Assembly (NCBI GenBank): GCA_025839675.1
Contig: CP104013.1
Location: forward strand, 5,700,001-5,732,000
Length of the DNA: 32,000 nucleotides
Direction: 5' to 3'
Origin: Candidatus Lokiarchaeum ossiferum
Lineage (GTDB): Archaea; Asgardarchaeota; Lokiarchaeia; Sigyniarchaeales; Promethearchaeaceae
Shown: positions 1-20,579 of the stretch, in pieces
Numbering within the stretch: the first letter of the stretch is position 1
Layout: every line of letters begins with the position of its first letter
Program-made: the position numbers and the translations under genes
The notes under the pieces: model-generated
What the model was told of the DNA's origin: nothing
Databases searched by the model: none
Seen by the model: the letters and a program-made list of their open reading frames with translations, nothing else

Positions 1-55
1 TTATATTGTGTTATTTTCTTTTCTTGTTTTTTAATTTATTTCTCTATTTAATTCT

Positions 56-769
56 TTATCTATATCTACCTTGAAATTCATATATTTTATATGGTGATTT
101 TTGACCAAAATGCGATTTTACACCCTTTAAATAATTACAATAAGGAAATGGTGGAATTATTATCTTGGAGTTATTTTTTCTTTTCGCAGAAAGTAGATGA
201 AAAATATCTGAACCAATGCAAATGGTTGAGTTCTGATCAAACGTTGCGTGTTTTTTTCCTATTGATTCTAATCGTTTTGCTGTAATTGCAGGGCGACCAA
301 CGATGATCAATTGGGGTTTTGTCTTCAAACCTATTTTTTCAACTTTAATTAGTCCGAAATCAATTCCTATTCTTATCTTAAGGTCTGGAAATTTATGCTC
401 TTTTTTCAGAACAATTAATAATTGAGACATTTCTAAGGCAGCATTCAAGGCATTTTCACAAGCTAATTCATCTGGTTGATTTTTATCACAGAAACTTATC
501 ATTGCACCATCCCCTGTATATTTGTCAACAATTCCTTTCTTTTCATTCACAATATGAAAAACCATATGTAGAAATGGACTTACATATCTTATGAATTCAT
601 TCTCTTCTAACTTTGATGAATTAGCAATATCCAAAACCAAAATTGCTGCTTTTAGTGTTCTTCTTTCTCCAATGGCCATTTCATCAATATTTGGAAAATG
701 ATTACTATTCTTTTTACCTGGGTTCTTTCTTTTGTTTAAAAATTTATTTAAAACTTGTTTATCTACCAC
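56..769 (-). CDS. Stand-alone class III nucleotidyl cyclase (cyclase homology domain) protein
   Basis: 237-aa ORF with a GTG start at 769 and a GGGGG tract about 12-16 nt upstream; the first ATG is at codon 31. Cyclase homology domain landmarks appear in the canonical order. AAILVLDIANSS matches the first metal-Asp strand (cf. FxDIxGFT). DKYTGDGAMISF matches KxxGDGxM with the second metal Asp. KIRIGIDFGLIKVEKIG matches RIGIHxGxVxxGxIG. IIVGRPAITAKRLES matches GxxVNxAxRxES, with the canonical Asn replaced by Thr. No extra sensor, TM or effector domain is visible. Confidence 0.7.
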   Translation of the reverse strand: MVDKQVLNKFLNKRKNPGKKNSNHFPNIDEMAIGERRTLKAAILVLDIANSSKLEENEFIRYVSPFLHMVFHIVNEKKGIVDKYTGDGAMISFCDKNQPDELACENALNAALEMSQLLIVLKKEHKFPDLKIRIGIDFGLIKVEKIGLKTKPQLIIVGRPAITAKRLESIGKKHATFDQNSTICIGSDIFHLLSAKRKNNSKIIIPPFPYCNYLKGVKSHFGQKSPYKIYEFQGRYR

Positions 770-863
770 TATCGTCTTTCCCCCTATTCTTAAACTACTA
801 ATACATCACTGTATTTGCTTTTGAAATTTACTCTTTTATTGTCATGAGTAAAACTTTGATTTT

Positions 864-872
864 AAAAAAAAA
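864..872 (-). terminator. Oligo-T tract (T9 on the coding strand) immediately after the gajB-like stop codon
   Basis: The plus strand shows A9 at 864-872, directly abutting the TAG stop (873-875, minus strand). Oligo-T runs act as archaeal termination signals. This genome is full of homopolymers, so the call is weak. Confidence 0.25.
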
Positions 873-2582
873 CTATATTTGTATTAGGTAAATACATTTT
901 TTTGTTCGGGTTAGAGAAGTAAAACAGATATTATCTTCTTCTGATTTTAATCTGGTTTTTTTTTTTGACGGATTATAATCATAATAAAATACTATATCAA
1001 ATTCTAATCCTTTTCCTTTATGATGTGTCATAACTCGAATTTTATTGGAGTCGTGTGGCAAAATTTGGTCTATATTTATGGCAATTCGCAAATGATTAAG
1101 TAAACTGCTTAATAAAGCCCTGCTATCGTCAGATTCATATTTATTAAAAACAATAAAATTCTGTACCTCCACTGATATTTTTTTTTTAAACTCGGAAGAA
1201 AAAAAATTATCATCGTAATTGAAAATGAAATTAATCAATTTTATTATATTAGAAGTACGTTGAAAAATAAACTTATTTAAATAATCCTGATAATCATTGG
1301 GTAAATCTACAAGCAGTATGGGATTGTGGTTAAGATAAAATTGTAATGAAAAGCAAAATTTATCGAATTCATTAATTTGATCTTCACTAATATCTAATTC
1401 AGATATAGGTATTCCATATTTAATGAGTTCTTTTTTAATTTTCAATACAATTGAATTAGTCCTCGCAAAAATAACGATTGATTCTGCTTTTATTCCCTCC
1501 TTTGTCCAAGAAAGTATTTCATTCTTGATGAATTCTATTTTTTTTTGTAAATTATTTGGATTTATTTCTTTTTGTATAATTTTTGCATCATTTTTATTTC
1601 TGAAATCAACATTTTTAATTAATCCCATGGATAAAGTTTCATTTGTATACTCTATGATATTTTTAGGATTTCGAAAATTTACTTCAAGTTTCAAAAGATT
1701 CGCATTGGTTTTTCTAATAAATTTATCAAAAATTGAAGGAAGACTACCAATCCACTTGTAAATAGATTGATCTTCATCCCCCACAACCATAAGATTTTTT
1801 GTTTGTTGAGCTCTCCATAATAACAAAATGAAATTTAACCGGTAATAGGTGCAATCTTGAAATTCATCTACAAGAATAATTGGAAACTTGATATTCAATA
1901 TATAACGAATATTTTTATATTTTTTAATCATCCAAATTGCACATAACTCCATCAATTCAAATGGTAAAAGCCCATTTTTTATATAATATTTTAAAACATC
2001 TTTAAAATAGTGATATTCTGCTTCCCATGGACAATCTTTTGGACATTTTAGTTCATCTTCACATTTCTCATGAAATTTCCAAAATAGACCATTTTTTGTT
2101 GAAACATCCCCCATCGTAAATTTTTTGCATTTCTTCACAAATTCAGATAATATATTTGTTCTAAATTTCTTTAATTTATTTTGATCACCTTGAACCATTT
2201 TTTGAGAGGGTACAATTAATTCACTTATTTTTTGATTTACTTCTAAAAATTCATTAAATAATAAGTTGCCATGTTTGGATATTAAATAATAATAAAAAGC
2301 GTGAAAAGTTCCAATCCAAATTCTCGATTTAATTGTTTTTTCATCAAATTTTTCATTAATTTGATCTCTCATATCCATTGCCGCTTTGTTCGTGAAAGTC
2401 AAACACAGAATTTTTTGATTTATGTCTAAGTAATTATTTTGAAGCAAAAATTCAATCCTTTTAACTAAAGTATAAGTTTTACCACTTCCTGGTCCCGCTT
2501 TAATTACATATGTTCCAGAAGGTGATTCTATACATAAATTTTGTGATGGAACTTTGATAATAACATCTCCTAATCCTTGCAA
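873..2582 (-). CDS. gajB: UvrD/Rep/PcrA-type superfamily 1 helicase, GajB-like
   Basis: 569-aa ORF with SF1 motifs in order. Motif I is AGPGSGKTYTLVKR and motif Ia is CLTFTNKAAMDM. Motif II is ILVDEFQDCT and motif III is VVGDEDQSIYKWIG. Motif IV is NFRNPKNII and motif VI is VMTHHKGKGLEFDIVF. It overlaps the upstream OLD-family gene by 13 nt, which is the Gabija / class 2 OLD gene arrangement. Confidence 0.85.
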   Translation of the reverse strand: MQGLGDVIIKVPSQNLCIESPSGTYVIKAGPGSGKTYTLVKRIEFLLQNNYLDINQKILCLTFTNKAAMDMRDQINEKFDEKTIKSRIWIGTFHAFYYYLISKHGNLLFNEFLEVNQKISELIVPSQKMVQGDQNKLKKFRTNILSEFVKKCKKFTMGDVSTKNGLFWKFHEKCEDELKCPKDCPWEAEYHYFKDVLKYYIKNGLLPFELMELCAIWMIKKYKNIRYILNIKFPIILVDEFQDCTYYRLNFILLLWRAQQTKNLMVVGDEDQSIYKWIGSLPSIFDKFIRKTNANLLKLEVNFRNPKNIIEYTNETLSMGLIKNVDFRNKNDAKIIQKEINPNNLQKKIEFIKNEILSWTKEGIKAESIVIFARTNSIVLKIKKELIKYGIPISELDISEDQINEFDKFCFSLQFYLNHNPILLVDLPNDYQDYLNKFIFQRTSNIIKLINFIFNYDDNFFSSEFKKKISVEVQNFIVFNKYESDDSRALLSSLLNHLRIAINIDQILPHDSNKIRVMTHHKGKGLEFDIVFYYDYNPSKKKTRLKSEEDNICFTSLTRTKKCIYLIQI

Positions 2583-4360
2583 ATGAATTCCAGAATGGCT
2601 CTTATTTCTTCACGAATATCTTCTTTTACAATAATATTGCCAACAACAAAACACATATATTCGGTTTTATTTTTACTTAAAATGGAAATCAAGCCCTTTC
2701 TTAATAATTTGACTAACTCAATTTGATCTATTTTCTCATATTGATTAAAAATTTCTTCAAGCATTTCAAAACTATCAATCTGTTTATCAAATTTTTTGTT
2801 GTGGTATGTAATTATTTTTGAAATTATTTTGCTTACATTAGAGAATTGAGATTGATTTTCCGCAATATCTTTAATAATCTTGAAGAGGGATGGTATTGTA
2901 AGAGCTTTCCCAATAAGAGATTCAATTGCATTATCTATTTTAAAAACTTCCACTTTTTTGGATTTTAATCTTGCTTCAATTTCACTATTGTCACCTTTAT
3001 CATCATCAATGATCACTTTTATAGATTTTTCAAAAAAATTGTTTGCTTCTACGGCATTTTCAATTTCAGAGCAAGAACCGACATAACGAAGGGAAATACC
3101 TTTATGATTTAAATCATATCGTTCATCTTTCATAGAAAAATATTTAATATACCACCAATCTGTTTTTCCTTCAATAATAATAATTTTTCTCGCAAAAATT
3201 ATATCTGGGAATATTTGAAGAGTATTCAATATCCATTTTTTTAATTTCTTATCTTTGTATTGCTGAATTGATTTGGAATTTACGGTCGTCATATTGTTTA
3301 AACTTTTATGATAAAACAGATAATTCGATTCTTCTGTTGGAAAAGGAATATTTGATGAATGAGTGGATACAATTAATTGATAATTCTCCGAATCTTCCCC
3401 GATCAATTCTTGAATAACATTTCTCCAAAAAGAGATCAAATACCGTTGGCTATGGGGATGAAGATGGATTTCTGGCTCATCAATTAAAATTGAAAAAGAA
3501 TTACTATTCGATTTATATTCTGATTCTAAATATATTTGGAATAAAGTATTTATAAAAAAATTTTTCAACCCATCTCCAATTTCAGTTGGCTGAAATTCTT
3601 TTGATTCTTGTCTTAACAATATTTGAAAATTATAGAGCAATTTTTCCTCAGTAGATAATCCAAATTCCAAAGAAGGATCAAGAATGGCTAATCTTGTATC
3701 ATATTCAAATAAATCTCTTAATTTCTCTTTCAATTTATGATTGAACTCTTTTATTGAACCTCTTTTGTTCAAATTTAAGTTAATTTTCTCAATTATGGCA
3801 ATCAATTCATCTTTCATTGAAGAATCAAGAATTTTCTCTAAAATTTTAGTGAATATTCCTTTTCTATTTCTAAGATTGATTGTTGCTTTTACATCATTAG
3901 TTGAGCTTATAAGCATGAAATAATAATTTTCCAGTAATCTTTTGTAAACTGCGAAATTTTTTTCTTCCATTTCATCAATTATAACAAAAGGATTGATCTC
4001 AATTTCATCTTCGTGATTTTCCACTTTGATTTTTAGAATTAATTCAATATCTTGTGGGTTTGAAGAATCTAAATTTGAGAAATAAGCTTCAAAAGCAGCA
4101 ATTTCTTTAATATTGAAATTTTTAAAAGTTAACCATAATTCAATAGGCTTTTTTTTATCAATAAATTGCTCTAAATTAAAGAAACGATATCTTTCTTGCT
4201 GATTGGAAAAGAATTGCTCAATTAGTTGAAGTGAAAGAGTTTTTCCAATATTATTTTGACCTATTATATAATTCAGGGTATTAAATTTTATAGTGGCATC
4301 TTCAAAGCAAACAAAATTATTAATTTTTAATTGGTTAATTTGCATATTTACACTCTCCAT
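2570..4360 (-). CDS. gajA: OLD-family ABC-type ATPase with C-terminal TOPRIM nuclease domain, GajA-like
   Basis: 596-aa ORF. The N-terminus MQINQLKINNFVCF is typical of OLD/AAA_15-like proteins. Walker A is GQNNIGKTLS, Walker B plus the following His is ILIDEPEIHLHP, and the H-loop is LIVSTHSSNI. TOPRIM Glu lies in IIIIEGKTDWWY and the acidic DxD cluster in VIIDDDKGDNSE. The likely true start is the ATG at 4345 (GGAG 9-12 nt upstream) rather than 4360. Confidence 0.85.
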   Translation of the reverse strand: MESVNMQINQLKINNFVCFEDATIKFNTLNYIIGQNNIGKTLSLQLIEQFFSNQQERYRFFNLEQFIDKKKPIELWLTFKNFNIKEIAAFEAYFSNLDSSNPQDIELILKIKVENHEDEIEINPFVIIDEMEEKNFAVYKRLLENYYFMLISSTNDVKATINLRNRKGIFTKILEKILDSSMKDELIAIIEKINLNLNKRGSIKEFNHKLKEKLRDLFEYDTRLAILDPSLEFGLSTEEKLLYNFQILLRQESKEFQPTEIGDGLKNFFINTLFQIYLESEYKSNSNSFSILIDEPEIHLHPHSQRYLISFWRNVIQELIGEDSENYQLIVSTHSSNIPFPTEESNYLFYHKSLNNMTTVNSKSIQQYKDKKLKKWILNTLQIFPDIIFARKIIIIEGKTDWWYIKYFSMKDERYDLNHKGISLRYVGSCSEIENAVEANNFFEKSIKVIIDDDKGDNSEIEARLKSKKVEVFKIDNAIESLIGKALTIPSLFKIIKDIAENQSQFSNVSKIISKIITYHNKKFDKQIDSFEMLEEIFNQYEKIDQIELVKLLRKGLISILSKNKTEYMCFVVGNIIVKEDIREEIRAILEFICKD

Positions 4361-4367
4361 TTATGTA

Positions 4368-5426
4368 TTAAAATTTATAATCTGGAAGAAATTTATTCCA
4401 ACAATCGAAAAGCTGGTCAATATAATATTTCAACTTGCCATATTTCCGTAGATTAATGATTTTCTTAACATAGACCCTCTGAAAAATATTAATTTTATCT
4501 ACCACAAGTTGCTCATCGTCTTTGAATTTAGAAGAAATCTTGAAATGACCCTTTTCCCATGCTTCCTTAAATTTTACTTCCAAATCGCTCTCCATATTAG
4601 AAGGAATAACTCCAAAATCTGCATTTCTTGGCAAAAAGTACATCCAACCGAAATTAGGGTTTGCATTTTTACCATTTTTGGTCAATTTATTAAGGTTATA
4701 ATACGAGACGTGCAAATTTTTTACGAATAATCTCACCGTATTCCAATTTTTTGCATACATTTGATATTGAAACCAAAAACTATCAATTAAATTTGCTGTG
4801 GTAATAAAATGGGCTTCCAGTTTAGCAATTTTTAAGTTTGATAACTTGAATTCAAAAAGATTAGGTTTTAATTTCTTTTTTTCCCAAAATGTCTTTAAAG
4901 GGATTTCCAACTTATTTATCAATTCTTCATCAATTATTCTATCGGTATATCTAATTTCTTTATAGTATGTATCCATATTTAGATGCAGGAAATCTTCAAG
5001 CAAGTGATTGAGATTTTTAATTTTTTTTTTATCTTTCATTTCTTGGATTATAGGATGATCTAAAAATTTCTTTTCTAAGTTTCCCAATATCATTGAATCG
5101 TTATTTACCGCTTTTTCTTTGTTCTTCTGAAAAATGGGAACAATTTGAACTTTAGATATTGACCACCATTCATCTAAAAAGTGAAAAAGGTGCCCTTGAA
5201 CTCCTCCAAAATGACGGGTGATGCGATCTTTAAAATTTTTCGTGCTTCCAATATAAAGCATTTGTTCCTTTTCTTCTTGAGGAGGCTTTCCCCAAAATAT
5301 ATAAATTCCTCCTAATTTCTCTTCAGTTTTCTGAATTGGAAAATGTTCTCTAAGCTCCCTAAACATTTCTTGTAAAACATTGGTGTACACAAGTTCATTA
5401 TTTTTTATTTCATTTTTTTGATTCAT
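4368..5426 (-). CDS. GIY-YIG nuclease-domain protein with a large uncharacterised C-terminal region
   Basis: 352-aa ORF. The N-terminal segment GGIYIFWGKPPQEEKEQMLYIGSTKNFKDRITRHF resembles the UvrC/Cho-type GIY...YIG...R..H core. A downstream LEKKFLDHP is a candidate for the catalytic Glu. The remaining ~230 aa have no motif I recognise. The gap to gajA-like is 7 nt and to the upstream gene 15 nt. Confidence 0.6.
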   Translation of the reverse strand: MNQKNEIKNNELVYTNVLQEMFRELREHFPIQKTEEKLGGIYIFWGKPPQEEKEQMLYIGSTKNFKDRITRHFGGVQGHLFHFLDEWWSISKVQIVPIFQKNKEKAVNNDSMILGNLEKKFLDHPIIQEMKDKKKIKNLNHLLEDFLHLNMDTYYKEIRYTDRIIDEELINKLEIPLKTFWEKKKLKPNLFEFKLSNLKIAKLEAHFITTANLIDSFWFQYQMYAKNWNTVRLFVKNLHVSYYNLNKLTKNGKNANPNFGWMYFLPRNADFGVIPSNMESDLEVKFKEAWEKGHFKISSKFKDDEQLVVDKINIFQRVYVKKIINLRKYGKLKYYIDQLFDCWNKFLPDYKF

Positions 5427-5441
5427 AACTGGTTCATTCTC

Positions 5442-6542
5442 TTATTTCTTTCTTTCTATCCAATTGATCCAATACTGATATTGTTCTTTTATCATGAAAT
5501 TAAACCATTTTTTTGATTTCGCATGTTCTGGTTTTTTTAACATATCCCATAGATCTTTACTGTTTAAAGTTAATCCCTTCCAAAGCTTTCCGATCTTCCT
5601 TTCATCAAATGAAAGCCCAATAATTATGTCAACCATCCCAATGGTTTCTTTTCCAAATTTCTTCCAATCGGATTCCAGTTCTTTAATGGCAATTCTTTTA
5701 TGTTTGATTTGTATGGTGATTTTATTTTTTGCAGGGATTATTATTTCCTTTGTGTTTGTTAAATTAAGTTTTTTATCGCTTGAATTTGGATTATATACTA
5801 GTAAATCGATACATTGACGGGAACCTCCTCTCATTCCACTTACAATACAATCAAAATCGGAAAATAACTTAAATATCAATGTTTCAAACTCAATAGGTCC
5901 TAGATAATGAATTAATTGCTCTTCTACAGGAATACTGAAATCTTGGAAAATTTCCGGAAATAGTTTTTTTATTGCATATTTTATATTTAACCTATTGATA
6001 GGAGCAATTGTTTTATATGCAAATTCTCGGGATCCTGAGAGAGTGGCAAGTATTTCTGGTGCAAAAAGAACTTCTTTTTTTTGTAAATTCTCAATTTCTA
6101 TAAATTTAGGAAAATGTGTATCATCCCAGCAAGCATATTTTGATTTGGTTTGGGAAGATAACCAACCATTCCATTCATTTTTATTAATTCCTTCATCATG
6201 GAGTATAAAGATTGGACCTTTTAATTGATAAATATATATTGTTTTTGAAGTAGCGGTTATACAATAGGTTTGTTCATTATTTATTGTCTCCTGAAAATAC
6301 TTGATCTGATTCCATTGCATTGCTTTTCTTTTTTTACTTTCACTAGCAATTTTTTGATAAACAGTTGGAGATCTTTCTGATTCTGGTGTATATATCTCTT
6401 CAATGTTTATATTGCCAAAGAAGAATACAATAACTCCTTTTTTTAGTGGATTATTTCCAGATAGAAGCGGTTCAGCTAGCGAATTCTTTTTGCTGACCTT
6501 AATGAAGCGTAAATTAATCTCTTCCAAATTTTTCAAACTCAT
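5442..6542 (-). CDS. Uncharacterised protein with a C-terminal Mrr-like PD-(D/E)xK nuclease motif
   Basis: 366-aa ORF and first gene of the cluster, with a GAGG Shine-Dalgarno-like element 9-12 nt upstream of the ATG at 6542. The C-terminal segment is FETLIFKLFSDFDCIVSGMRGGSRQCIDLLVYNP...ITIQIKHK. It follows the Mrr_cat pattern (FE..l...l...G..v......D.GiDl....(n)..iQ.K). The N-terminal ~210 aa are unrecognised. Confidence 0.5.
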   Translation of the reverse strand: MSLKNLEEINLRFIKVSKKNSLAEPLLSGNNPLKKGVIVFFFGNINIEEIYTPESERSPTVYQKIASESKKRKAMQWNQIKYFQETINNEQTYCITATSKTIYIYQLKGPIFILHDEGINKNEWNGWLSSQTKSKYACWDDTHFPKFIEIENLQKKEVLFAPEILATLSGSREFAYKTIAPINRLNIKYAIKKLFPEIFQDFSIPVEEQLIHYLGPIEFETLIFKLFSDFDCIVSGMRGGSRQCIDLLVYNPNSSDKKLNLTNTKEIIIPAKNKITIQIKHKRIAIKELESDWKKFGKETIGMVDIIIGLSFDERKIGKLWKGLTLNSKDLWDMLKKPEHAKSKKWFNFMIKEQYQYWINWIERKK

Positions 6543-7035
6543 GATTTTGCCTCTTTATTGCTATATATTCATTATGATTAAGGACAATTTAAATATTCTA
6601 TTTTGAATTCGATTGATTTTTTAATTCTGTTTAAAAAAATAATTTTACCCCGTTTTAAAATATTATTTCATGTTTTTTTTGTAGATTTTTGTTTAGTATA
6701 AAAAGGAGTCAACTATCCATGATGGACTTTATACAATTTCACTCAGGAAGATCCAGAAAGAAAGTGATGGAAAATCAGTAATATTTAGATTTGGTGAATT
6801 ATGTGTGAGAATTGTACAGATAGGTGGTTCACTGATTATGAAAAAGTATATAACGCAGAATTTATATGTGATAAGTAGATTTGAACTTGTTGATTGTCAA
6901 TTAATTTTGTAAAATCATAGAAATTAAACATTCTTAATCAAAAGATAAAATTTTAATTAGATATGATGAAATTCAATCAAAAATGAGCAAATGATAGTAA
7001 TTTAAAAGTAAATTCAAAGGAAATGAATGTGAAAT

Positions 7036-8682
7036 ATGAACGTTAGTATTATACATAATAATGAAGGAAAAGTGAAACCTTGGATTAAATTTTTAAGCGG
7101 TACGGTATCTGCTATTGCAGCATTAAATTTATCCTCCACTATTGCACGTGTAGCAAAAAAGAAGAGATTTGGGATAATTTATGTGATGTTTTCAATTCAT
7201 CCCAAATGCAACTCAATATATGTTGGGCAGACCGCTCAACCAGATAATTATGCAAGATTCTCAGATCATATCAATGACGCAAAAAGAAAGGGTTCCCCTG
7301 AATATGATTACAAATTAAGTCGGGCAATTAGAAAATATGGTGAATCTACTTGGAGAATACTGACAGTTGATAAATATCTGGAATACTTGAAAGCTAATGG
7401 AACACCCCATATCGTCATAAATAAACAGCTTTTAGATAAAAAAAAAGTAATTTTTAGAGCTGACAACAAAGAAACTCTATCATTATTGGAGATCCTTTGG
7501 ATTGAAGAATTCAACAGTTATCATGATGGATATAATTCAACTTTAGGAGGAGAAGGTAAAAGATTAATTGAAGGTTTTTCTATAAGTGAAATTAATCATT
7601 ATATCGATCTGCTAGAGAGAAAACATATGAAGATGCAAATTGTTCCACTCTCAACATCACCCAAAGAGTTAACCAAAGCTGAAAATCCATTTCATGAAAT
7701 GTCTTATTCCCAATTCAGTTTGAAATTGGCTTATAGCAATTTTCCTTCTGATATTTTGCAAAGGATAGCAGACTTAGAAATGTGGAGCCGTTTTTACAAC
7801 AATAAGAAGAAGCAAATCAGTCTAGCCAATATTATTGTCGTTGAAAAAATTTTGGGGATGGATCATTTTCGTTCTTTTGATTACAATCGCAAAAATTTAG
7901 ATCAAAATTTAACTTTGGATGAAATACGTGATGAATTTAAATCTAAATTAGATATTACTCCTATTCTCGAAACATATGGCATCGATCCATCTTGGATTCC
8001 TTCCATTAAACCAAGTTGCAGTATTTCATTAGGGAGAATTGGTGATATTCGAAATTCAATATTGATAGATCTATTTGAAAATAATCGGCAATTTTCAAAA
8101 TCTTATTTGCTTGAGAAATATAAATCAACTCGTCATATTATAACATCTTCTCCTATACAAAGAGGATTAAAACGAATTTATAATAATTCAATTGCTATAA
8201 TATGTAATTGGGACGAGATATCACTTGAATCTGATGAAGAACTAACCTTTCGGGAAATAGCTTATATCAAATTCCGTTTTCCATCTATTTCGCATCAATT
8301 AATGACAGAGGGTAAAAAATTGAAAAGATTCTTAGGAGAAGATTTAAATAATGCTGGAAGTGGTAGGAGAGAATTACAAAATTACCTAAAAATATCTCGT
8401 AACCATTTTACTTACTTTGATGAAATCTTTTCTCCTGAAATTTCAATCAAATTCAATAGCAAAATGTGGGAAAACTATAAACGATTAGTTTTCATTGAAA
8501 ATATCTTGATTAGGACTCCCTTTATCTCCCCGAAAGAATTAGCTTATCTCTATTTTGGATCAGATTTTTCTGAAAGTGAGAGAAAAAATATCTCGAGAAA
8601 ACTGAATGCTATTAAGAAGATGGCCAGAAAAAATTTGAGACTTTCACAACTATATTTGAACAAGGAAATTAGTCTTATTTAA
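7036..8682 (+). CDS. Free-standing GIY-YIG homing-endonuclease-like protein (I-TevI/Seg-like N-terminal domain) with a long C-terminal extension
   Basis: 548-aa ORF. GIIYVMFSIHPKCNSIYVGQT...RFSDHINDAKR...KLSRAIRKYGESTW...LEILWIEEFNSYHDGYNSTLGGEG reproduces the GIY / YIG / R / H / E / N landmarks of phage-type GIY-YIG homing endonucleases. About 370 aa of unassigned C-terminal sequence follow. The start codon is uncertain: 45 aa precede the GIY motif. Confidence 0.7.
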   Translation: MNVSIIHNNEGKVKPWIKFLSGTVSAIAALNLSSTIARVAKKKRFGIIYVMFSIHPKCNSIYVGQTAQPDNYARFSDHINDAKRKGSPEYDYKLSRAIRKYGESTWRILTVDKYLEYLKANGTPHIVINKQLLDKKKVIFRADNKETLSLLEILWIEEFNSYHDGYNSTLGGEGKRLIEGFSISEINHYIDLLERKHMKMQIVPLSTSPKELTKAENPFHEMSYSQFSLKLAYSNFPSDILQRIADLEMWSRFYNNKKKQISLANIIVVEKILGMDHFRSFDYNRKNLDQNLTLDEIRDEFKSKLDITPILETYGIDPSWIPSIKPSCSISLGRIGDIRNSILIDLFENNRQFSKSYLLEKYKSTRHIITSSPIQRGLKRIYNNSIAIICNWDEISLESDEELTFREIAYIKFRFPSISHQLMTEGKKLKRFLGEDLNNAGSGRRELQNYLKISRNHFTYFDEIFSPEISIKFNSKMWENYKRLVFIENILIRTPFISPKELAYLYFGSDFSESERKNISRKLNAIKKMARKNLRLSQLYLNKEISLI

Positions 8683-10709: not shown

Positions 10710-12119
10710 ATGCAACGATTAAAAGAATTACGTAATGATATTTACAAATGTATCCACTGTAAAGCCTGTCGATTTGCCTATTCGGGTGAACCTGATCGCG
10801 AAGGAATTGGAGAGCATACTGGAGTACAAGGAGATAAAACCTTTTACGAAGGGATGGTTCAAGCCTGTCCTGCAGGAATTGAATTCGGATGGGAAGCCTT
10901 CTGGAATGCGGGTAAAATTTGGATTGCACGTTCCGTATTAGAAGGGGACTTGGATTTGAAAGAACATGGGCAAGAGATTGCTGATGTGGCTTTCCCATGT
11001 ATCACCTGTGGAATGTGTGGGGCTCAATGTGAGAACAATGTGCGCACCGTAGATGTTATTGAAGCTCTTCGGGCTGCAGTGATTGAAGCCGGAACTAAAC
11101 CTTTACCTGTTCATGGAATTATGGCAAAGAACAGTGAGGTTAAGAACAATCCATATGGGGCAGTGAAAGACGAACGCACCAAATGGGCAAAGGATGCGGG
11201 AGTTTTCGATTCTATTATTGATAAAAAAACCAAAATTGGCTACTATGTTGGATGTACTGCCAGCTATCGCCAAACGAATATTGCAGTCGCCACGGTGAAA
11301 CTGCTTCAAAAAATTGGGTATGATATCACCATTTTGGATGAAGAATCCTGTTGTGGATCCCCCTTCTTCCGAACGGGATTGATCGATGAAGGCAAACGCA
11401 CTATGGAAAATAACTTGAAAATTTTCAAGGATTTTGAAATCTTAATCTTCAGTTGTGCCGGATGCTATCGAACCTTTACCATTGACTATCCTAAATGGAC
11501 TGGCAAGGCTAACACCTTCAAAACAATTCATGCGATGGAATTGATTTCTGAATTGGTTCGTCAAGAAAAAATCAAGTTCAAGGAACATCCAGAATTGACG
11601 GGCAAAACCGTGACCTATCATGATCCATGCCACACCGGGCGACATTATGGCTCCTGGTTCAAGGAAAGATTGATTGAAGAATCTACGAATTTAATGATGG
11701 ATATGCGCGCCGCGGGAAAAATCGAACATGAATGGTTTGAAGTCCCACGACGCATCATCAAAGCCCTCCCCGGAGTGACCTTTAATGAAATGTATCGAAT
11801 CAAGATGGATTCCTTCTGTTGTGGGGCCGGTGGTGGTGTGCGAGGGCAATATCCTGAATTCAGTATTAAAACCGCCCACTTACGGATGGATGAAGGGGAT
11901 GCGGTCGGTGCTGATATCATGTTAACCGAATGTCCATTCTGCTGGCGAAACCTCGATGATGCCAATAATCAATACAAGCATGGGAAGAAGGTTATGACCA
12001 TTTTGGAAATGATTTCCACTTATGATTTAATTGAATCGGCGGAAAAAATCGATGTCGAAGAAGCCCTGCGAGAAAATCATGCCGAACAACACTTCCCTTC
12101 CAACAAAAAGAAGAAGTAA
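10710..12119 (+). CDS. Fe-S cluster / double CCG-domain protein, GlcF / HdrD / LutA-like
   Basis: 469-aa ORF with AGGAG 12-16 nt upstream. Two ferredoxin-type cysteine motifs are present (CIHCKACRF...CPAG and CITCGMCGAQCE). Two CCG motifs are also present (ESCCGSPFF and DSFCCGAGGG), with the associated Cys patterns FSCAGCYR, HDPCH and ECPFC. Confidence 0.85.
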   Translation: MQRLKELRNDIYKCIHCKACRFAYSGEPDREGIGEHTGVQGDKTFYEGMVQACPAGIEFGWEAFWNAGKIWIARSVLEGDLDLKEHGQEIADVAFPCITCGMCGAQCENNVRTVDVIEALRAAVIEAGTKPLPVHGIMAKNSEVKNNPYGAVKDERTKWAKDAGVFDSIIDKKTKIGYYVGCTASYRQTNIAVATVKLLQKIGYDITILDEESCCGSPFFRTGLIDEGKRTMENNLKIFKDFEILIFSCAGCYRTFTIDYPKWTGKANTFKTIHAMELISELVRQEKIKFKEHPELTGKTVTYHDPCHTGRHYGSWFKERLIEESTNLMMDMRAAGKIEHEWFEVPRRIIKALPGVTFNEMYRIKMDSFCCGAGGGVRGQYPEFSIKTAHLRMDEGDAVGADIMLTECPFCWRNLDDANNQYKHGKKVMTILEMISTYDLIESAEKIDVEEALRENHAEQHFPSNKKKK

Positions 12120-12269
12120 CTCAAATTGTAATCTTTTTATTTTTTTACTCCATTTTTATTTCTTGAAAATCCTTTTACGATGCACCTCAATTCTTCAAAT
12201 TGTTTTCAGTTTCTCCAATTTGTTAAAATTAATGATGCGAACTATATTTCTAAATTGATTTATTTGATT

Positions 12270-12890
12270 TCAATTATCATTTTCATCAAAAACGCTTTTG
12301 CTATTGTTTTCTTGAAATAGTGTATTAATTTCTGATAAATCATTTTCGGTTAATGAAGTAGGGACGAATTGTTTGATATAGTCTAAATATCCTGTTTTTC
12401 CATTTTCCACTGTCCAAAAAGATGCAGAATCATAAATACATGCCAAACATAAATTTAATGTTGAAAATCCTCTACAATCAGACATTTGGATAAGTTCGGG
12501 GATAATTTTTAAGATGTTCTCAAATAGATCTAATTCTATCGGTTCCAAGCGAGTAGTGGAATTTATATCCGAAGAATGCTGTAATATATTGGCATTCCAT
12601 TGTTTTTGACTATATAACAAACATCCTAATGTATTCAATACATTATAATCATTTCCTAATGGGTATTGGTCTGCCCATGCCATGATTTGATGTTCTAAAT
12701 TAAATAGAATATATTCATACTTCCTTTTTGCGTATGCCATTTTAGAAGACGAAGGCAATTTGGGGGAGAATTTTAGAGTTTGGGCAAGAATTTCTCTCTT
12801 CTTTGGGGTCCCTTTGCTTTTTTTTATAATTTTATTTCGGGCATAGCGGACAAGATGTTTTTGACTATGCTTTGGGTTTTGCTTTGGCAT
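12270..12890 (-). CDS. Hypothetical protein (very basic N-terminal 50 aa; no recognisable domain)
   Basis: 206-aa ORF ending in TGA. There are no antisense competitors of similar length. The true start could be Met51 (MAYAKRKYEY). Confidence 0.5.
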   Translation of the reverse strand: MPKQNPKHSQKHLVRYARNKIIKKSKGTPKKREILAQTLKFSPKLPSSSKMAYAKRKYEYILFNLEHQIMAWADQYPLGNDYNVLNTLGCLLYSQKQWNANILQHSSDINSTTRLEPIELDLFENILKIIPELIQMSDCRGFSTLNLCLACIYDSASFWTVENGKTGYLDYIKQFVPTSLTENDLSEINTLFQENNSKSVFDENDN

Positions 12891-13064
12891 AATTGATTTT
12901 TAAATTTAAGAATATTAAATTATTTATTATTAGAGCCCTAATATCTCAAAGAGAACTAATTTTCTTCTAACAACCAAGTAGCAGAGATTTTTGGGAAATA
13001 AGAAAAAGAATTTGGAATGAAATCTCATTGAAAAACGTTTTTTGTAAAATCATCATCAGATTTT

Positions 13065-13472
13065 TTAAAACAAATAGGACTTTACATGTAAGTGGGGGAT
13101 TTTTGGTAGGATTTTTTCTGTAGTGTGAAATGTGGCTTTCTTTTGCAGAGCGATAGCAATTGCAATACAATCATTGTAAGATAATTTGGCTCGATGCTGA
13201 CATTTCAACCTTCCTGCTTGAACAATTAACTCATGAGATAAATCCACAAAGTTGATATCAAATGCTCGATAAAATGATTGCAACACAGATTCGGCATAAT
13301 TGTGCCCTTTTAACACACACAAGTGTTTAAACACTTCAAGAAGGATTTCTTTAGCAATGAATGTGTTAGCGGGATTTGTTTTGATTAGCTCCATTAATAA
13401 ACTGAACTCTTTTGGAGTGTTTTGTAAGAAATAAAGAGAAAGGACGCCTGCATCCAAACAATGAAAGACCAT
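13065..13472 (-). CDS. vapC: PIN-domain toxin, VapC-like
   Basis: 135-aa ORF. An N-terminal acidic residue sits in MVFHCLDAGVLSLYF (cf. LDTSVL). Late acidic/small residues sit in LSYNDCIAIAIALQKKATFHT, typical of PIN. Its start is 1 nt downstream of the stop of the AbrB-type gene. Confidence 0.7.
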   Translation of the reverse strand: MVFHCLDAGVLSLYFLQNTPKEFSLLMELIKTNPANTFIAKEILLEVFKHLCVLKGHNYAESVLQSFYRAFDINFVDLSHELIVQAGRLKCQHRAKLSYNDCIAIAIALQKKATFHTTEKILPKIPHLHVKSYLF

Positions 13473-13473
13473 C

Positions 13474-13713
13474 TTAGAACTCCAAGTCTAATTCTTCCCG
13501 CTTAGATTTTAAGTAAATTTTTTTAAATTCTTCTACTGTTGCCGATTGTTTTTTCAATTCCTGGAGTGGGATTATAGGTGTGATTCGCATTGTCCCATCT
13601 TCATTTTCATTAATTATAACATGATCTCCATCATTAAAGTGAAATTTCTTGCGTAGACTAGCTGGAATCGAGATCATTCCCTTATTGGTTATTTTCACGG
13701 TTTTTTGAATCAT
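13474..13713 (-). CDS. vapB: AbrB/SpoVT/MazE-fold antitoxin, VapB-like
   Basis: 79-aa ORF. ITNKGMISIPASLRKKFHFNDGDHVIINENEDGTMRITP is the swapped-hairpin AbrB-type DNA-binding pattern. It sits immediately upstream of the PIN gene. Confidence 0.75.
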   Translation of the reverse strand: MIQKTVKITNKGMISIPASLRKKFHFNDGDHVIINENEDGTMRITPIIPLQELKKQSATVEEFKKIYLKSKREELDLEF

Positions 13714-13880
13714 TATTATTACTAAGAATATTGGGAAAAACTAAGTATATGAATTTTATCTCAGTTTTTTATTTTTCTATCTTGACTATTCTGGAAAAAA
13801 GTTACCATTGATTGGGCAGAATTGATTTACGTGTGAACAAGTTTTGATGAAGTTTGTCTATCGGTGAGATCACCAAATTT

Positions 13881-14128
13881 ATGAGTGGGTTCTGCTTCCA
13901 AGTCTTTTGTGCTGCTTTTTTATCTGGGGCAATTCGGCAAACGGCAAATAATCTGCATAATCAGAAACAAAACGCGTCTCCCCAAAACCAAAATACTGAA
14001 CCAATTAGTGAGACATCATCAAATCAAAATTTTTCAGGGCAAGCTAAAAAACTTTGTTCTGGATGTGGAGAATTGATTGAGATCCTACTAGTAAGATATG
14101 TGCTTATTGTGGGGCTCAAATTAAATAG
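13881..14128 (+). pseudogene. Small zinc-ribbon protein gene interrupted by a 1-nt frameshift
   Basis: Frame 0 (ATG 13881) reads ...AKKLCSGCGELIE through 14081. The frame starting at 14081 reads DPTSKICAYCGAQIK then TAG (14126-14128). Joined, they give CxxC-x13-CxxC, a complete zinc-ribbon knuckle pair. Neither frame alone contains both halves. Confidence 0.35.
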
Positions 14129-14348
14129 ACACTGCTCATTTTCTACAAGTATTTTTCCTAATTTTTTTTCTATGTCCTAATTTACAATAGAAATGTAATA
14201 CAAAAAATCTGCGTGAGTAATTTTGTGAAATAAATTACACCGCCCCAAAAATACTAACAAAAAAAATTACTTATTGGGAATTCGGGTGCACTGAATGAAG
14301 TCAAGAGACCTGCGAAAAGACTTAATTAATAGACATAAAAAAATAGAA

Positions 14349-17300
14349 TTAAAGATCTGGAATCATATTGATTAAGGTGACTATTATTTCCCCATTTTCA
14401 GTTAAATTTAAGTGTTCATCAATCAATTCCAGTTGTTGTAACCTCAATATGGATGGAATTACAACCAAAATTTTTGTTTTATTTTCTAAGTCTTTTTGAT
14501 TTTTAATTCCTTCTTCTATTGTTTTTAAAACCAATCGTTCTTCCTTTGAAAGTTGTTGGATAAAAGGTTTAAATTTTTCAGCTAAGGCTTTTGTCCGTGG
14601 ATTAACAGCAAACACAACTCCTTCCGCTCTTAACTCGTGGATTGAATTAAAAGTAGTGATCTCTTTTTTACCGTACGCGGCTAAGGCTATAATCATGTCC
14701 CGAACTTTAAAGCTGCAATCAAAATTCACTTTAGCTTCTTTAACAATCAATGATTGCACTGATTTCTTTCCATAAGACTTTAAAAATCCGGGCACTTTGG
14801 ATAAGATCAGATTATGGGGATATAGTAAATCCACATGCAGCATTTCTTCCACAATTTTCATAATGGGTTCTCTTGGAATTTCTTCCCCGATCCAATTATT
14901 AAAAATCTCCTTATGGGTATCTTCAAGTTTTTGATTGAATTTCTGAACGCTCTTTTTCATAGATTCACCTGGAGATTTTAGAAGTAAAACGGCTGTCCGA
15001 ATAAATTCCCCATCTTTTACCACAATTTTAAATTGCTGGTATGAAAGTTCTTCCAATCCTTGATTCCCATCCATGGGTGTTGAGTTACTTTCTAAATTCA
15101 TTTCTGGCTTCAAATTTGATCCAATTTCCTTTCCAAAAGAAGAAATTGCGGACAAAAATCCACTAATTAAATTGGCATCTATTGGAATATTTGAAAAGCT
15201 TTGCGAAAATAAAGATAATCCATTTTGTTTATGTATTATCAACATATATTGGATATTTTCAATATCTGCAAATTGTCGATGAATTTCAATCATTTGAAGT
15301 CGACGTTTGTTTCGTTTCGGAACATAAATTCCTCGATATGTTACCATACTTAAAACTATAAGACTAACCAAACTAATAGAAATAGGGAGAACATTATCCC
15401 AAATTATGATCCAAGTGTTGATAACTCTCACATTGTATAAATTATCTTGATTAGCGTTAAGGTTTGTAGTTTCATAAATACTGCTCGCCTCAAATATCGG
15501 TACTATTGTGAAACTACCTACTGAATCTACTACTATTGTTGTAGTTGCAATTCCTTCAGCGTTAGTGCTAGCAGTCGTATCAGAAATGGATTCTCCAATA
15601 GAATTTCTTAAAATAAATCGAATCGTTTGACCTTGAAGTTCTTTTCCATTTTCATCAATAAGTTTGACCGAAAATGTAAAATCTCCCGAAAAATCCTCTT
15701 TAACTTTAGTGTCCAATAGAATTAAGGTCGTTTTTAATCTTGGTAATATCGAATAGCTAATTACTTTTTGAAAACTTGATATTTTAGAAGTTCCCGAAAA
15801 GCTAATGCTAATATTCATCCAATCCCCACCATCATCAAATGGAATTTCATAGGAAATGTAGATCGATGAATTAATGATTATGGTATCGGTTAAATAGATC
15901 GAAGAACCTGCAAAATAGATGATTATCGTTGTTTCCAGACCATTCAATGTCTCGACACTAGATGAATTTGTGAATAATGCTTGGATGTTGTAATCGGTTA
16001 TTGCCCCATGTCTAAGATCCTCTTGGATATTCACAATTTCGAAATTAACATCCCACTTATCCCAAATATCAATTGTATAGACTATCATGAAACTTTGAAT
16101 TGTCGAGTTTCCTTGGAAATTTAAGGTAATATTTAGCCAATCGCCACAATCTTGAGGTATTTCATAATCTATGACAATAATACCTGAAAAACCGAACCAA
16201 GCTTGCCGAATAATGGGATCCATTCCTTCATATTCATAGATTATGAAAATTGATTCAGTATAAAATGAAAAGTTACATGAAGAATCTAAATATTTGGCTA
16301 AAATGTTTAAATCAAATTCTTCTCCAATTCGGTACATCGATTTCAAATTTGTAATTTCAAATGAAGTTTCCCATTTCATAAGGATTACTTGATCAACTAT
16401 ACTTGCACTTGCATAGCCATTTATCGCAGTTCCTGCATAATCAATAAAAAAAGTAATATTTTGATACCCATCAGGAATGGCTGGGGTAAGATATTCATAC
16501 ACTCCATCTTCATTAACATAAATTTGTTGAATAAAAACTAAGTTTTGATTATCCCCATCTACCCAAGCAGCTACAGTTAAATAAATGTCAATATAGTCTT
16601 CATATGAACTAATTGACAAATTTCCCGATAATATTACCTGATATCCTACCCTCAGCATAGAGTCTGCATCTAATTCTATGCTTAAGTTGACTGAATTTTT
16701 TCCCTTTATGAAATTGTTTAAGTCTGCATAGGATGAATTTTGAATATATGGAGTTCCGAGATAAATAACATGAACATCCAGTGTTGTTTCAGCATATTCA
16801 CTTGATATCATCTGCGAATATGAAATCATACCAAATCCATCAGTTGTTTTAAAAATTTGGAGGGATTCGAATCCATCAAAGTTCAAGATAATTTGTATTT
16901 CTGCATCGAAAATCGGGGAACTATTTAATATATATGATAAATTAACAACTAAATCCATTATTTTTCCAATTTGGAGTGATTCTGTGAGTAGGATGTTTAT
17001 TTGAGACTCCTTTTTCTCCAATATTTGGAAATTTGATTGAATCCAAGATGCATTTTCACAATTTATCAGATTTGCTGTTATTTCTAGTATATATATGCCT
17101 GGTTCTAAATGAAATCCATCTTCGGTAAAATCAATTGAAGAAGCATACACTCCTGAAAGCAAATTTGTCAAGTTTCCATAAGCAAGCATTTCAAAACTTT
17201 CATTTTGTATTTTCCACGATAAATCCCCCCCACTTAATGGCAATGGGCTTTCTATTTGGTTTATATTGTCAAATGTTGCATAAATATCTACTTTCGATTC

Positions 17301-20300
17301 TTCGTATAAAGGTTCCAAGGTATTACTCACTAATTGAGTTGCAATAGGGAGAATCGCCGTTGAGAATTCGATGTAAGTACTATTGTATCCATCTAAAGAA
17401 ATGGTAAGAGATAGGGTATAATTAAAAGTATCCATTCGAGATGTAGTATTTAAGCCATAGGCATTAAGATTTATATAATAAAGACCTCTATCTGATTCCT
17501 TTTGAGTTTGCTGGTAGATATCTACACCATAAAAAATATTATCTGTCCCATTAAATTTCCCCGTTAGTTGTCCATTTGATAATGGTGCTCCATTGGAAGA
17601 ATTGGTCACATTAACTTCAATTGTACTCTTTTGATTGTCATCAACCCTCGGCAAATTATTAGAATGGATCAATCCTGTATATATATCAGTATTAAATGCC
17701 CCAGAAATAATATTCATACTCATAGGATATCCAGATATTTTAATTATTGAATATAATTTAACTTCGTCATAAAATGGATATGTTACTTCAATAAATATAT
17801 CATAATTTCCAATAGGGACAGATCTCGTTTTGAATTCAAGGGTATAATTCCCTTCAGATCCAAAACTGGAATTTTCGTAAACTTCTCCTATCAAGTATTG
17901 ATTTGGAGGCCAATCAATCCCCCACAAATTTTCAGAATCTGACCAAAATATATTCAAATAATTCTCAGCCCCCGAAATTGGAAGTCCTTTTTCATGAGAT
18001 ATGTTTAAATAGAAATTGCCTACATCTCCAGAATTCAATTCGTTCATTTTTTGAGTAATATTGGCATTTAAGGAACGCCATACTTCAAAAGTACCTCTGG
18101 CAATCCCCAATTGTGTTGTTTGACCACCTTCTGTATTGTTCCATATTGCATAAATTGAATATTCTCCGACTCCAGTATCGTTAATAATCCAAGATGAGTC
18201 TGTTAAATTGCCTGATATATGTGGAAAGTATGCGGGAAATTGAGGGATTATTTCATTTGATGCATCAAATATTGTGATGTTATAATTTCCTTCAACTTCT
18301 TCAATATTTGATTGGTTTACCTGAAGAATTGTAGAATTTTGATCATAAAATCTTGTGTTTTCGGGGGCATCATCATGAATGAGAAATACATCGGCCAAAC
18401 AATTTTTTGAAGAATATGTAAGAATCCACGTCCCGTTGATATAATTAAAATCATTCAATTTTTCTGTTGCCTCAGCTATAGTCAAATTTTGACTATTTGG
18501 GTTGTTTTGACTACCATTTGTTGAAAATCCCTTGGCATATTCTGGTGTTACCCCTGTCGGATCAACACCTCCCGTCCAAAGCCAATCTGTTGAATTTTCT
18601 CCCAATCCATCATAAGCAGGTAAATCCACTACCGTAAAGTTGTAACCTCTGGGATTGAAATTCTCATACTCATGATTGATTAGTTGATCGAAAGTATTTG
18701 CATTATCGTACGAGACATTCCAAAGAATCCGTTCAGGTGCAATTTCTGAAAAACTCGGAATGATGTAGGTTGCCGATGCGTTATTTGATTGATTCCTTGA
18801 AATAATTAGGTTATCTTCAAACTCAAGAAAACTTGATGCATATAATGGGTTAGTGATGTTAAAAGCCATGGTAAGGTTGTTATTTTCTAGTGGAACTTTA
18901 GAATCAATGCCAAATTCTGTTTGGTTTATCCAACTTGTGCCATTCCACCGTTGCAATCCTACCTTTGTTAAATTTGGTTGATTATAAATGACCTCCAAAA
19001 AAATATCATCAAAGGATACCGAAAAATCCCAAGTGTGAGGTCTCTCCCCTCCCAAATTTAAAATCCCTAAATGAAATATAAATTGGTCAGAATTTAGGAT
19101 TGATTTGTGGCGAGTTGATAAATTATATTGTAAATTTTTTGATTCTTGCGGTGCTGTAAATATATCATCAATGAATCCTAATGGGACAAATATTTCACTC
19201 CCAGAATTATTAGCAAATACTGAAAATAAATACCAATTTCGCATTTGAAAGGTATTATCAAAATTAATCTCGCATTCAAATTCTAAATTTCCAATATCAT
19301 ATTGATCTTCCTCAATTGCTCTTATAAAAACCCCGCCAAACGACACTTGAACTTCATCACTTGTATCATTGATATTTTCAAACCAAATCCCAAAATCTAA
19401 AGTATGATTCGATTTTTGAGAATCAATAAGCTCAGTAATATCAAAAATTCTGACTACATAATCATGACCTAGCGGTTCTCCAATATTTGCTAGTGAATTT
19501 TCTAAGGTCGTTGCAGTGGCATTTGGATAACTTACCCCATTCGTGTCTGTTCTTCCATCAATATATTGACCATCAATTCTGGCTATTATACTCAAATTGT
19601 CTGAAGCTTCGAAACTTAATGCTTCTACTTTCCAATATGTGATAAACTCATATTTTTTAGGGATAAAATCTGGAGCAGTTAGTTCTGGAAAAACAACATT
19701 CCAGCCTATCGAGGGGTTACCTAAAGTAAGTAAACTACTTCCCGCATGTATATATGCTTGCAATGATTCGTCCACATCATTATATTCAAGTCTTCGATTT
19801 GAAGCTTTCTTGTCTCCTCCATATGGATTATCAAAGTCCCTTTCCCAATTACTTCCTGATATTCCAATCAACTCATCACCCCAACTTGGTTCCTCATTAA
19901 ATTGATTATATAATGCAAATTCTGAATTACCTGTTGATATAAGTTCCGTTTCATGAATTTCTGCTTCTGGATCTGGTTTTGTGATATCTTCTTGTGACCA
20001 CACTGCCAAGGCGTCTCTTGGTATATATGGATTGATAACTCCATTATCAGCTGTACTAATAATTCCGAGCTCATTTGAATAATCACCACGGAATCCCCAT
20101 GAATCGTCAGAAACATATTGAGATGCAGAAAAATCCCATTCTCTTTCCATGGATGATGCCTCTATACTCCCATCTCGAGTGATGTTCCATTCTTGAGCAA
20201 TTGCGTCAATATTCATAGTGTGTGAATTTATATTCCAATTTTCGGGAATTCCAATCGTGAAGTTTTCTGTGGAAATGTCTAAACGAGATTTCTCAGCTGT

Positions 20301-20579
20301 ACTTTGAATTGCTTCAAGAACATCAAACGTGGCGACATTTTCCATCACATAGTCATTTTCAAAACTTGTTTCAGGGTTTCCTAAAAATTCCCTTAAGATA
20401 TCATCATCTTTCACTTGAAAATTGTCCTGATTTGTTGATTTATCCACTAAATCATCATCTAAGTTGAATTTATTATCCATAGAGTTGCTCTCATTAGAAT
20501 ATGAAGTGATTAAGGAAAATAAAATGAGAAGAACTACAAGTATTTTATTAAATTGATTCCATTTTTTTATTCGAGCCAC
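14349..20579 (-). CDS. Giant (2076 aa) bitopic surface protein with a large extracellular region, one late TM helix and a ~330-aa cytoplasmic tail
   Basis: GTG start at 20579 with AGGGGT upstream. The N-terminal signal/anchor is KILVVLLILFSLITSYS. About 1700 aa of Asn/Ser/Thr-rich sequence follow, with dozens of N-x-S/T sequons and Ig-like repeats. The TM helix VLPISISLVSLIVLSMV (nt 15342-15392) is followed by the positive stop-transfer YRGIYVPKRNKRR. Then comes a soluble tail with an alpha/beta regulatory-type module and a possible winged-helix-like end. Confidence 0.85.
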   Translation of the reverse strand: MARIKKWNQFNKILVVLLILFSLITSYSNESNSMDNKFNLDDDLVDKSTNQDNFQVKDDDILREFLGNPETSFENDYVMENVATFDVLEAIQSTAEKSRLDISTENFTIGIPENWNINSHTMNIDAIAQEWNITRDGSIEASSMEREWDFSASQYVSDDSWGFRGDYSNELGIISTADNGVINPYIPRDALAVWSQEDITKPDPEAEIHETELISTGNSEFALYNQFNEEPSWGDELIGISGSNWERDFDNPYGGDKKASNRRLEYNDVDESLQAYIHAGSSLLTLGNPSIGWNVVFPELTAPDFIPKKYEFITYWKVEALSFEASDNLSIIARIDGQYIDGRTDTNGVSYPNATATTLENSLANIGEPLGHDYVVRIFDITELIDSQKSNHTLDFGIWFENINDTSDEVQVSFGGVFIRAIEEDQYDIGNLEFECEINFDNTFQMRNWYLFSVFANNSGSEIFVPLGFIDDIFTAPQESKNLQYNLSTRHKSILNSDQFIFHLGILNLGGERPHTWDFSVSFDDIFLEVIYNQPNLTKVGLQRWNGTSWINQTEFGIDSKVPLENNNLTMAFNITNPLYASSFLEFEDNLIISRNQSNNASATYIIPSFSEIAPERILWNVSYDNANTFDQLINHEYENFNPRGYNFTVVDLPAYDGLGENSTDWLWTGGVDPTGVTPEYAKGFSTNGSQNNPNSQNLTIAEATEKLNDFNYINGTWILTYSSKNCLADVFLIHDDAPENTRFYDQNSTILQVNQSNIEEVEGNYNITIFDASNEIIPQFPAYFPHISGNLTDSSWIINDTGVGEYSIYAIWNNTEGGQTTQLGIARGTFEVWRSLNANITQKMNELNSGDVGNFYLNISHEKGLPISGAENYLNIFWSDSENLWGIDWPPNQYLIGEVYENSSFGSEGNYTLEFKTRSVPIGNYDIFIEVTYPFYDEVKLYSIIKISGYPMSMNIISGAFNTDIYTGLIHSNNLPRVDDNQKSTIEVNVTNSSNGAPLSNGQLTGKFNGTDNIFYGVDIYQQTQKESDRGLYYINLNAYGLNTTSRMDTFNYTLSLTISLDGYNSTYIEFSTAILPIATQLVSNTLEPLYEESKVDIYATFDNINQIESPLPLSGGDLSWKIQNESFEMLAYGNLTNLLSGVYASSIDFTEDGFHLEPGIYILEITANLINCENASWIQSNFQILEKKESQINILLTESLQIGKIMDLVVNLSYILNSSPIFDAEIQIILNFDGFESLQIFKTTDGFGMISYSQMISSEYAETTLDVHVIYLGTPYIQNSSYADLNNFIKGKNSVNLSIELDADSMLRVGYQVILSGNLSISSYEDYIDIYLTVAAWVDGDNQNLVFIQQIYVNEDGVYEYLTPAIPDGYQNITFFIDYAGTAINGYASASIVDQVILMKWETSFEITNLKSMYRIGEEFDLNILAKYLDSSCNFSFYTESIFIIYEYEGMDPIIRQAWFGFSGIIVIDYEIPQDCGDWLNITLNFQGNSTIQSFMIVYTIDIWDKWDVNFEIVNIQEDLRHGAITDYNIQALFTNSSSVETLNGLETTIIIYFAGSSIYLTDTIIINSSIYISYEIPFDDGGDWMNISISFSGTSKISSFQKVISYSILPRLKTTLILLDTKVKEDFSGDFTFSVKLIDENGKELQGQTIRFILRNSIGESISDTTASTNAEGIATTTIVVDSVGSFTIVPIFEASSIYETTNLNANQDNLYNVRVINTWIIIWDNVLPISISLVSLIVLSMVTYRGIYVPKRNKRRLQMIEIHRQFADIENIQYMLIIHKQNGLSLFSQSFSNIPIDANLISGFLSAISSFGKEIGSNLKPEMNLESNSTPMDGNQGLEELSYQQFKIVVKDGEFIRTAVLLLKSPGESMKKSVQKFNQKLEDTHKEIFNNWIGEEIPREPIMKIVEEMLHVDLLYPHNLILSKVPGFLKSYGKKSVQSLIVKEAKVNFDCSFKVRDMIIALAAYGKKEITTFNSIHELRAEGVVFAVNPRTKALAEKFKPFIQQLSKEERLVLKTIEEGIKNQKDLENKTKILVVIPSILRLQQLELIDEHLNLTENGEIIVTLINMIPDL
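15744..16379 (-). repeat. Two tandem ~106-aa (318-nt) Ig-like repeats inside the giant protein, with a third divergent copy upstream
   Basis: Repeat 1 is KWETSFEITN...YEIPQDCGDWLNITLNFQGNSTIQSF. Repeat 2 is DKWDVNFEIVN...YEIPFDDGGDWMNISISFSGTSKISSF. The anchoring Trp residues (aa 1403 and 1509) are 106 aa apart. The preceding YLTPAIPDGYQNITFFIDYAGTAING looks like a degenerate earlier copy. Confidence 0.6.

Follow-up and report, generated by a model that had tools for sequence, protein, structure and literature searches.

A Pycsar-type nucleotide cyclase and its PycTM effector beside a Gabija system in the Asgard archaeon Candidatus Lokiarchaeum ossiferum

Next to a Gabija system, the genome of Candidatus Lokiarchaeum ossiferum encodes a small class III nucleotide cyclase, which raises the question of whether this enzyme serves Gabija, belongs to a defence system of its own or has no part in defence. 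We investigated the gene within a window of 32,000 nucleotides (contig CP104013.1, positions 5,700,001 to 5,732,000 of the forward strand); coordinates below are those of the window unless another contig is named. An initial annotation of this DNA had described a minimal cyclase with no recognisable effector, at the 3' end of a Gabija-like cluster, and had proposed that it could be a regulatory add-on to Gabija. Our preferred reading, to which we assign a probability of about 0.85, is that the gene is pycC, the cyclase gene of a canonical two-gene Pycsar system, located in a low-GC defence island with an independent Gabija system beside it.

We established the identity of the gene from its sequence, its domain content and its predicted fold. 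The open reading frame encodes 237 amino acids from a GTG start codon (Table 1), a start that is supported by the conservation of residues 1–30 across homologues (MV.YQ.L..FL.KRK). A GGGGG run at 780–784, 11–15 nt upstream of the GTG, is a candidate ribosome-binding site. As first described, the protein is essentially a cyclase domain: Guanylate_cyc is the sole Pfam domain (1.1e-7, residues 40–174), and the motifs LVLDI (containing D47), TGDGAM (D87), AITAKR and RLES are all present. Its classification as a PycC-like stand-alone defence cyclase was likewise confirmed, the PycC-specific PADLOC model PDLC02367 giving a far better match (3e-20) than the generic Pfam model. The AF2 model of PycC, obtained with 15 homologues (pLDDT 88, pTM 0.87), has an N-terminal helix at residues 4–15, and such a helix is a hallmark of PycC (PMC11224242). 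The Foldseek matches of this model are class III cyclases; among the matches listed, BcPycC (7R65) has the top query coverage (TMq 0.72, E 2.6e-13). The same structure, that of a cUMP synthase, is the best PDB match of the family profile (5.1e-14). Sequence and fold also match the ordinary class III cyclases CyaB and Cya2. A profile search of 1.8 billion representatives revealed that the close family is very small, with 7 representatives below 1e-30, and that many stand-alone cyclases of ~220–260 aa lie beyond it. The PADLOC PycC models match every one of the stand-alone relatives (53/53, 215–262 aa), with best E-values down to 1e-74, while NCBIfam holds no model matching the cyclase or PycTM.

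Table 1. Features of the pycC locus (window coordinates, except for the full pycTM gene, which is given on contig L001).
Feature	Position	Strand	Evidence
pycTM 3' end (last 10 codons and stop at 2–34)	1..34	+	Translation YIVLFSFLVF*, equal to the C-terminus of the L001 ORF
Full pycTM, 176 aa	L001 9044–9574	-	Convergent with pycC
Spacer between the convergent stops of pycTM and pycC, 21 bp	35..55	.	Sequence read
pycC, stand-alone class III nucleotide cyclase, Pycsar type	56..769	-	ORF, Pfam, PADLOC, AF2, Foldseek
gajB-pycC spacer, 103 bp	770..872	-	Sequence read
gajA-gajB (Gabija), overlapping genes	873–4360	-	PADLOC GajA 5.6e-37, GajB 2.6e-52

The effector that seemed to be missing is a PycTM protein encoded across the window edge. 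An identical cyclase protein occurs on four public contigs, and each of them carries a PycTM gene at a distance of 21 bp from the cyclase stop codon; contig L001, which reaches ~10 kb past window position 1, provides the gene in full length. PADLOC identifies the 176-aa open reading frame as PycTM (PDLC02364, 2.2e-21, residues 11–170). The Pfam PycTM family PF18967 matches it at 1.2e-4 with 22.9 bits, which falls short of the gathering score (27.2), and PF18967 is also listed for pycTM in precomputed gene tables. The protein has three hydrophobic segments (~34–56, 62–95 and 151–176), which fit the 3TM family given for PycTM-type effectors in the Pucsar preprint (bioRxiv 10.64898/2026.08.12.744502). 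Hence, the statement that no effector is recognisable holds inside the window only, and the guess that the off-window neighbour could be the missing effector was right, except that this neighbour converges on pycC from the opposite strand instead of following it downstream. We counted this arrangement against our reading, as pycC and pycTM do not form a co-directional operon. The neighbour is nevertheless an ordinary Pycsar effector, and the cyclase looks like an "orphan" only because the window ends where it does; it is part of a standard Pycsar pair, a correction of little consequence beyond bookkeeping. Upstream of pycTM, on the same strand, are genes for two small predicted membrane proteins (221 aa and 159 aa, L001 9707–10866, − strand), which have no family matches and are absent from the loci of relatives.

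The association of the cyclase with PycTM recurs throughout its archaeal relatives. Ca. Lokiarchaeum ossiferum itself has a paralogue, NEF87_002687, which is 61% identical to the window cyclase and whose PycTM is again convergent, 75% identical and separated by a spacer of 22 bp (contigs L005/L006); this second Pycsar copy is not located within the window or on L001. More distant archaeal relatives, including Promethearchaeota MAGs, are 35–52% identical to the window cyclase. PycTM homologues (36–75% identity) adjoin the cyclase on contigs L005–L014. Every archaeal relative with flanking DNA has such a pair, and its order is convergent, divergent or co-directional in both possible ways; the TM gene precedes the cyclase in L010, L011, L012 and L014, and the two genes diverge in L013. 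Gene order in archaeal Pycsar pairs is very plastic, which is of modest interest in itself. GajA and GajB were not found beside the cyclase in L008, L010, L012, L013 and L014, as assessed by tblastn, precomputed Pfam and PADLOC; the contigs of the second paralogue (L005–L007) extend only 165–240 bp upstream of the cyclase. On L008 (ENA ERZ4220937 NODE_3939), a single PycTM gene (+) is flanked at 854–2909 by two cyclase genes, one on the + strand and one on the − strand, both encoding proteins ~51% identical to the window protein. This two-cyclase locus fits the remark that some Pycsar-1 loci carry several cyclases (bioRxiv 10.64898/2026.08.12.744502). The same contig encodes a pAgo at 5363–7528.

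On its other side, pycC lies downstream of gajB and on the same strand, so that its placement at the 3' end of a Gabija-like cluster was correct. Oligo-T tracts are termination signals in archaea, and a run of nine T at 864–872 on the − strand directly abuts the gajB stop codon (873–875). This tract resembles an archaeal terminator and may act as one, which argues, without proof, against pycC being the last gene of a Gabija operon; with pycC on the gajB strand, read-through co-transcription is possible. GC content is 27–30% in positions 1–8000 versus 31–43% further along the window, where housekeeping genes sit. L001 encodes, at 11077–15071 (+), a 740-aa AAA_15/AAA_21 ATPase (PADLOC AriAB/OLD-like, 1e-26) together with a 583-aa Schlafen/AlbA_2 protein, a pair that is probably another defence module of the same island, as well as a DUF4365 from 17892. 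The low GC content of positions 1–8000 and the presence of these three components on L001 identify the locus as a defence island. No tRNA genes hinting at an integration site were detected. Two further genes on the gajA strand (4368–6542, −) immediately precede gajA, with gaps of 7–15 bp: one encodes a GIY-YIG protein of 352 aa (Pfam 1.2e-6; weak PADLOC PDC-S14 match), the other a 366-aa protein with no match in Pfam, PADLOC, NCBIfam, PHROGs or PDB. With gajA and gajB, they may form a four-gene Gabija variant. Divergent from the defence cluster is a gene (7036–8682, +) whose 548-aa product resembles GIY-YIG homing endonucleases in its N-terminal region (PHROG 7168, 9.7e-12).

We analysed the active site of the window PycC by counting residues in 15 close relatives and in 53 wider relatives of the short PycC type. 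The metal-binding D47 and D87, which had been recognised from the motifs, are invariant in the 15 close and in 53/53 wider relatives and align with D52 and D96 of BcPycC; K165 is also invariant, and K83 is present in 52/53 wider relatives. The initial annotation had further noted the loss of the transition-state Asn of the VNxAxR motif and its replacement by Thr. The loss is real, the replacement is a different one: HMMER alignments to 3R5G, 7R65 and 2W01 match V-N-L-A-S-R with A-I-T-A-K-R, which places Ile162, not Thr163, in the Asn column and R166 in the Arg column, and leaves the Asn-Arg pair incomplete. This column holds Asn in 39/53 relatives and in all solved relatives with printed alignments. 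Thr, Ile or Val replaces the Asn in exactly 11 sequences, which make up an archaeal subclade, monophyletic in a neighbour-joining tree, that contains the window PycC; most close relatives have Thr at this position, unlike the Ile of the window protein. Throughout the subclade both metal-binding Asp, K83, K165 and R166 (AKRLE) are retained. The conservation of active-site residues at ~50% overall identity indicates purifying selection on the active site. That a class III transition-state Asn was lost in one archaeal subclade is a minor curiosity. A sister archaeal subclade displays the reciprocal pattern, with the Asn kept and Ile, Leu or Asn at position 166 (AKILE, AKLLE, AKNIE); Lys165 is invariant in both.

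The base pocket of the window PycC is less telling. Residues Y50, D94 and R97, which select UTP in BcPycC (PMC11224242), correspond to V45, T85 and G88 in the window protein, and full agreement is lacking with the pockets of AnPycC (clade D) and EaPycC (clade E) as well. Most of the short PycC-type relatives have the K-x-T-G-D-G pattern. With a base pocket unlike that of BcPycC, the sequence does not reveal the product, and we rejected an assignment from pocket residues since they match no characterised clade cleanly. PycC enzymes of clades A–D make cUMP and those of clade E make cCMP (PMC11224242). Our best guess for the product is cUMP, since it is what four of the five PycC clades and the closest solved relative make.

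How well do other readings of the locus account for these observations? In the one proposed initially, the cyclase would be a regulatory add-on to Gabija that consumes NTPs or makes a cNMP and thereby gates the nucleotide-sensitive GajA nuclease. Defence islands ordinarily bring together systems that are unrelated to one another, which counts against this idea; in its favour are the shared strand, the short distance from gajB and a preprint in which Pycsar systems cluster with the Gabija operon (bioRxiv 10.64898/2026.02.13.705702). However, the cyclase has a dedicated PycTM effector adjacent to it, the cyclases of relatives with flanking DNA are always found beside PycTM and, in the loci searched (L008, L010, L012, L013 and L014), never beside GajA or GajB, and the T9 tract directly follows the gajB stop. 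These observations argue for a separate Pycsar system of known type, which would function independently of Gabija, and we now regard the add-on as highly improbable. A housekeeping or signalling cyclase without a defence role is more improbable still. Such an enzyme would be expected to resemble CyaB and Cya2 in sequence and fold, as the window protein does; yet the latter has no sensor domain, scores far higher with PycC-specific models than with the generic Pfam model and shares its defence island with Gabija, an OLD/AriA-like ATPase and a Schlafen-like protein (and, in L008, near a pAgo). Its conserved adjacency to PycTM effectively refutes this reading.

Other alternatives accept the Pycsar architecture and concern what the enzyme does. 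Its messenger could be a purine cyclic nucleotide (cGMP or cAMP), as in Pucsar or in the predicted ATP-preferring Pycsar-like-4 branch, which we consider unlikely. In class III adenylyl cyclases, adenine is specified by a Lys four residues before the second metal-binding Asp, and K83 occupies this position in the window PycC. The departure of the pocket from that of BcPycC points the same way, as does the finding that cGMP can be the product of Pycsar-related cyclases paired with TM effectors (bioRxiv 10.64898/2026.08.12.744502). But a conserved pocket Lys, K104, is present in the cUMP-making AnPycC too, where it is important within a triple-alanine mutant (PMC11224242), and UTP is the preferred substrate predicted by models for the Pycsar-1 to Pycsar-3 subclades (bioRxiv 10.64898/2026.08.12.744502); in addition, PADLOC groups the protein with the PycC models, and the closest solved relative makes cUMP. 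Somewhat less likely is a cyclase impaired or dead through the loss of the Asn, in a locus that is decaying or repurposed. With Ile162 where 39/53 PycC-type relatives and the solved relatives have Asn, activity could be reduced. The substitution is, however, common to the whole monophyletic subclade, which has kept its other catalytic residues; subclade members with flanking DNA retain an intact adjacent PycTM, L. ossiferum keeps two such pairs, and most defence proteins of strain B35 were seen in its proteome (bioRxiv 10.64898/2026.02.13.705702). We would give even less weight to the idea that the subclade, with its Asn replaced by Thr, Ile or Val and its Arg166 kept, might have an altered catalytic mode or produce a non-canonical messenger, or alternatively that read-through from gajB into pycC might co-regulate Gabija and Pycsar.

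In the canonical Pycsar system that we favour, the mode of action would follow the described Pycsar mechanism, in which a cNMP-activated membrane effector leads to abortive infection (PMC11224242). Virus infection would activate the PycC homodimer, in which D47 and D87 would hold the two divalent metal ions used to cyclise an NTP to a 3',5'-cyclic mononucleotide, most likely UTP to cUMP. The cNMP would then activate the adjacent PycTM, a small protein with three predicted membrane-spanning segments, through which the membrane would be compromised and infection would end abortively. Like BcPycC (7R65, clade B), the window protein consists of one cyclase homology domain (~230 aa), has an N-terminal helix and two metal-binding Asp, and is encoded in a defence island beside a small multi-pass membrane effector. 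It differs in its Asgard host, in the convergence of the two genes, in Ile162 at the Asn position and in V45/T85/G88 at the positions of the UTP-selecting triad, and identity between the two proteins is ~17–25%. Pucsar (PucC with PucTM or PucTIR) shares the cyclase scaffold and the TM effector class; it is a cGMP-producing offshoot of Pycsar, so the messenger of the superfamily is not fixed, and in PfPucC guanine is recognised by Gly118 and Lys195 (bioRxiv 10.64898/2026.08.12.744502). The housekeeping class III cyclases CyaB (3R5G) and Cya2 (2W01) have the same catalytic fold and metal Asp pair, but they keep the Asn-Arg pair, usually carry sensor domains and have no linkage to PycTM. Gabija, composed of GajA (an OLD-family ATPase/TOPRIM nuclease) and GajB (a UvrD-like helicase), is the immediate neighbour and a separate system.

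This type of system is known, and the locus itself has been reported before: a 2026 preprint describes two PADLOC-detected Pycsar systems that cluster with a Gabija operon in strain B35, almost all defence proteins of which were detected in the proteome (bioRxiv 10.64898/2026.02.13.705702). The supplementary text files of that preprint contain no mention of Pycsar, PycC, PycTM or GajA. Pycsar is among the systems that are commoner in Asgard archaea than in other prokaryotes (Leao et al., PMC11291487). A cultured Asgard archaeon would possess cyclic-mononucleotide immune signalling in duplicate, which makes this signalling testable in a relative of eukaryotes.

Elsewhere in the window, we noted several genes of other kinds. 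A 135-aa PIN-domain protein (13065–13472, −; Pfam 1.1e-7) is possibly a VapC-type toxin. Two large open reading frames on the − strand, one of 2076 aa with a weak Big_1 Ig-like domain (14349–20579) and one of 1087 aa with seven beta-helix/NosD repeats (24582–27845), probably encode surface proteins. Between them lies a heliorhodopsin gene (22557–23396, −; Pfam PF18761, 9.5e-81), adjoined by a gene for a CBS-domain protein (21436–22293).
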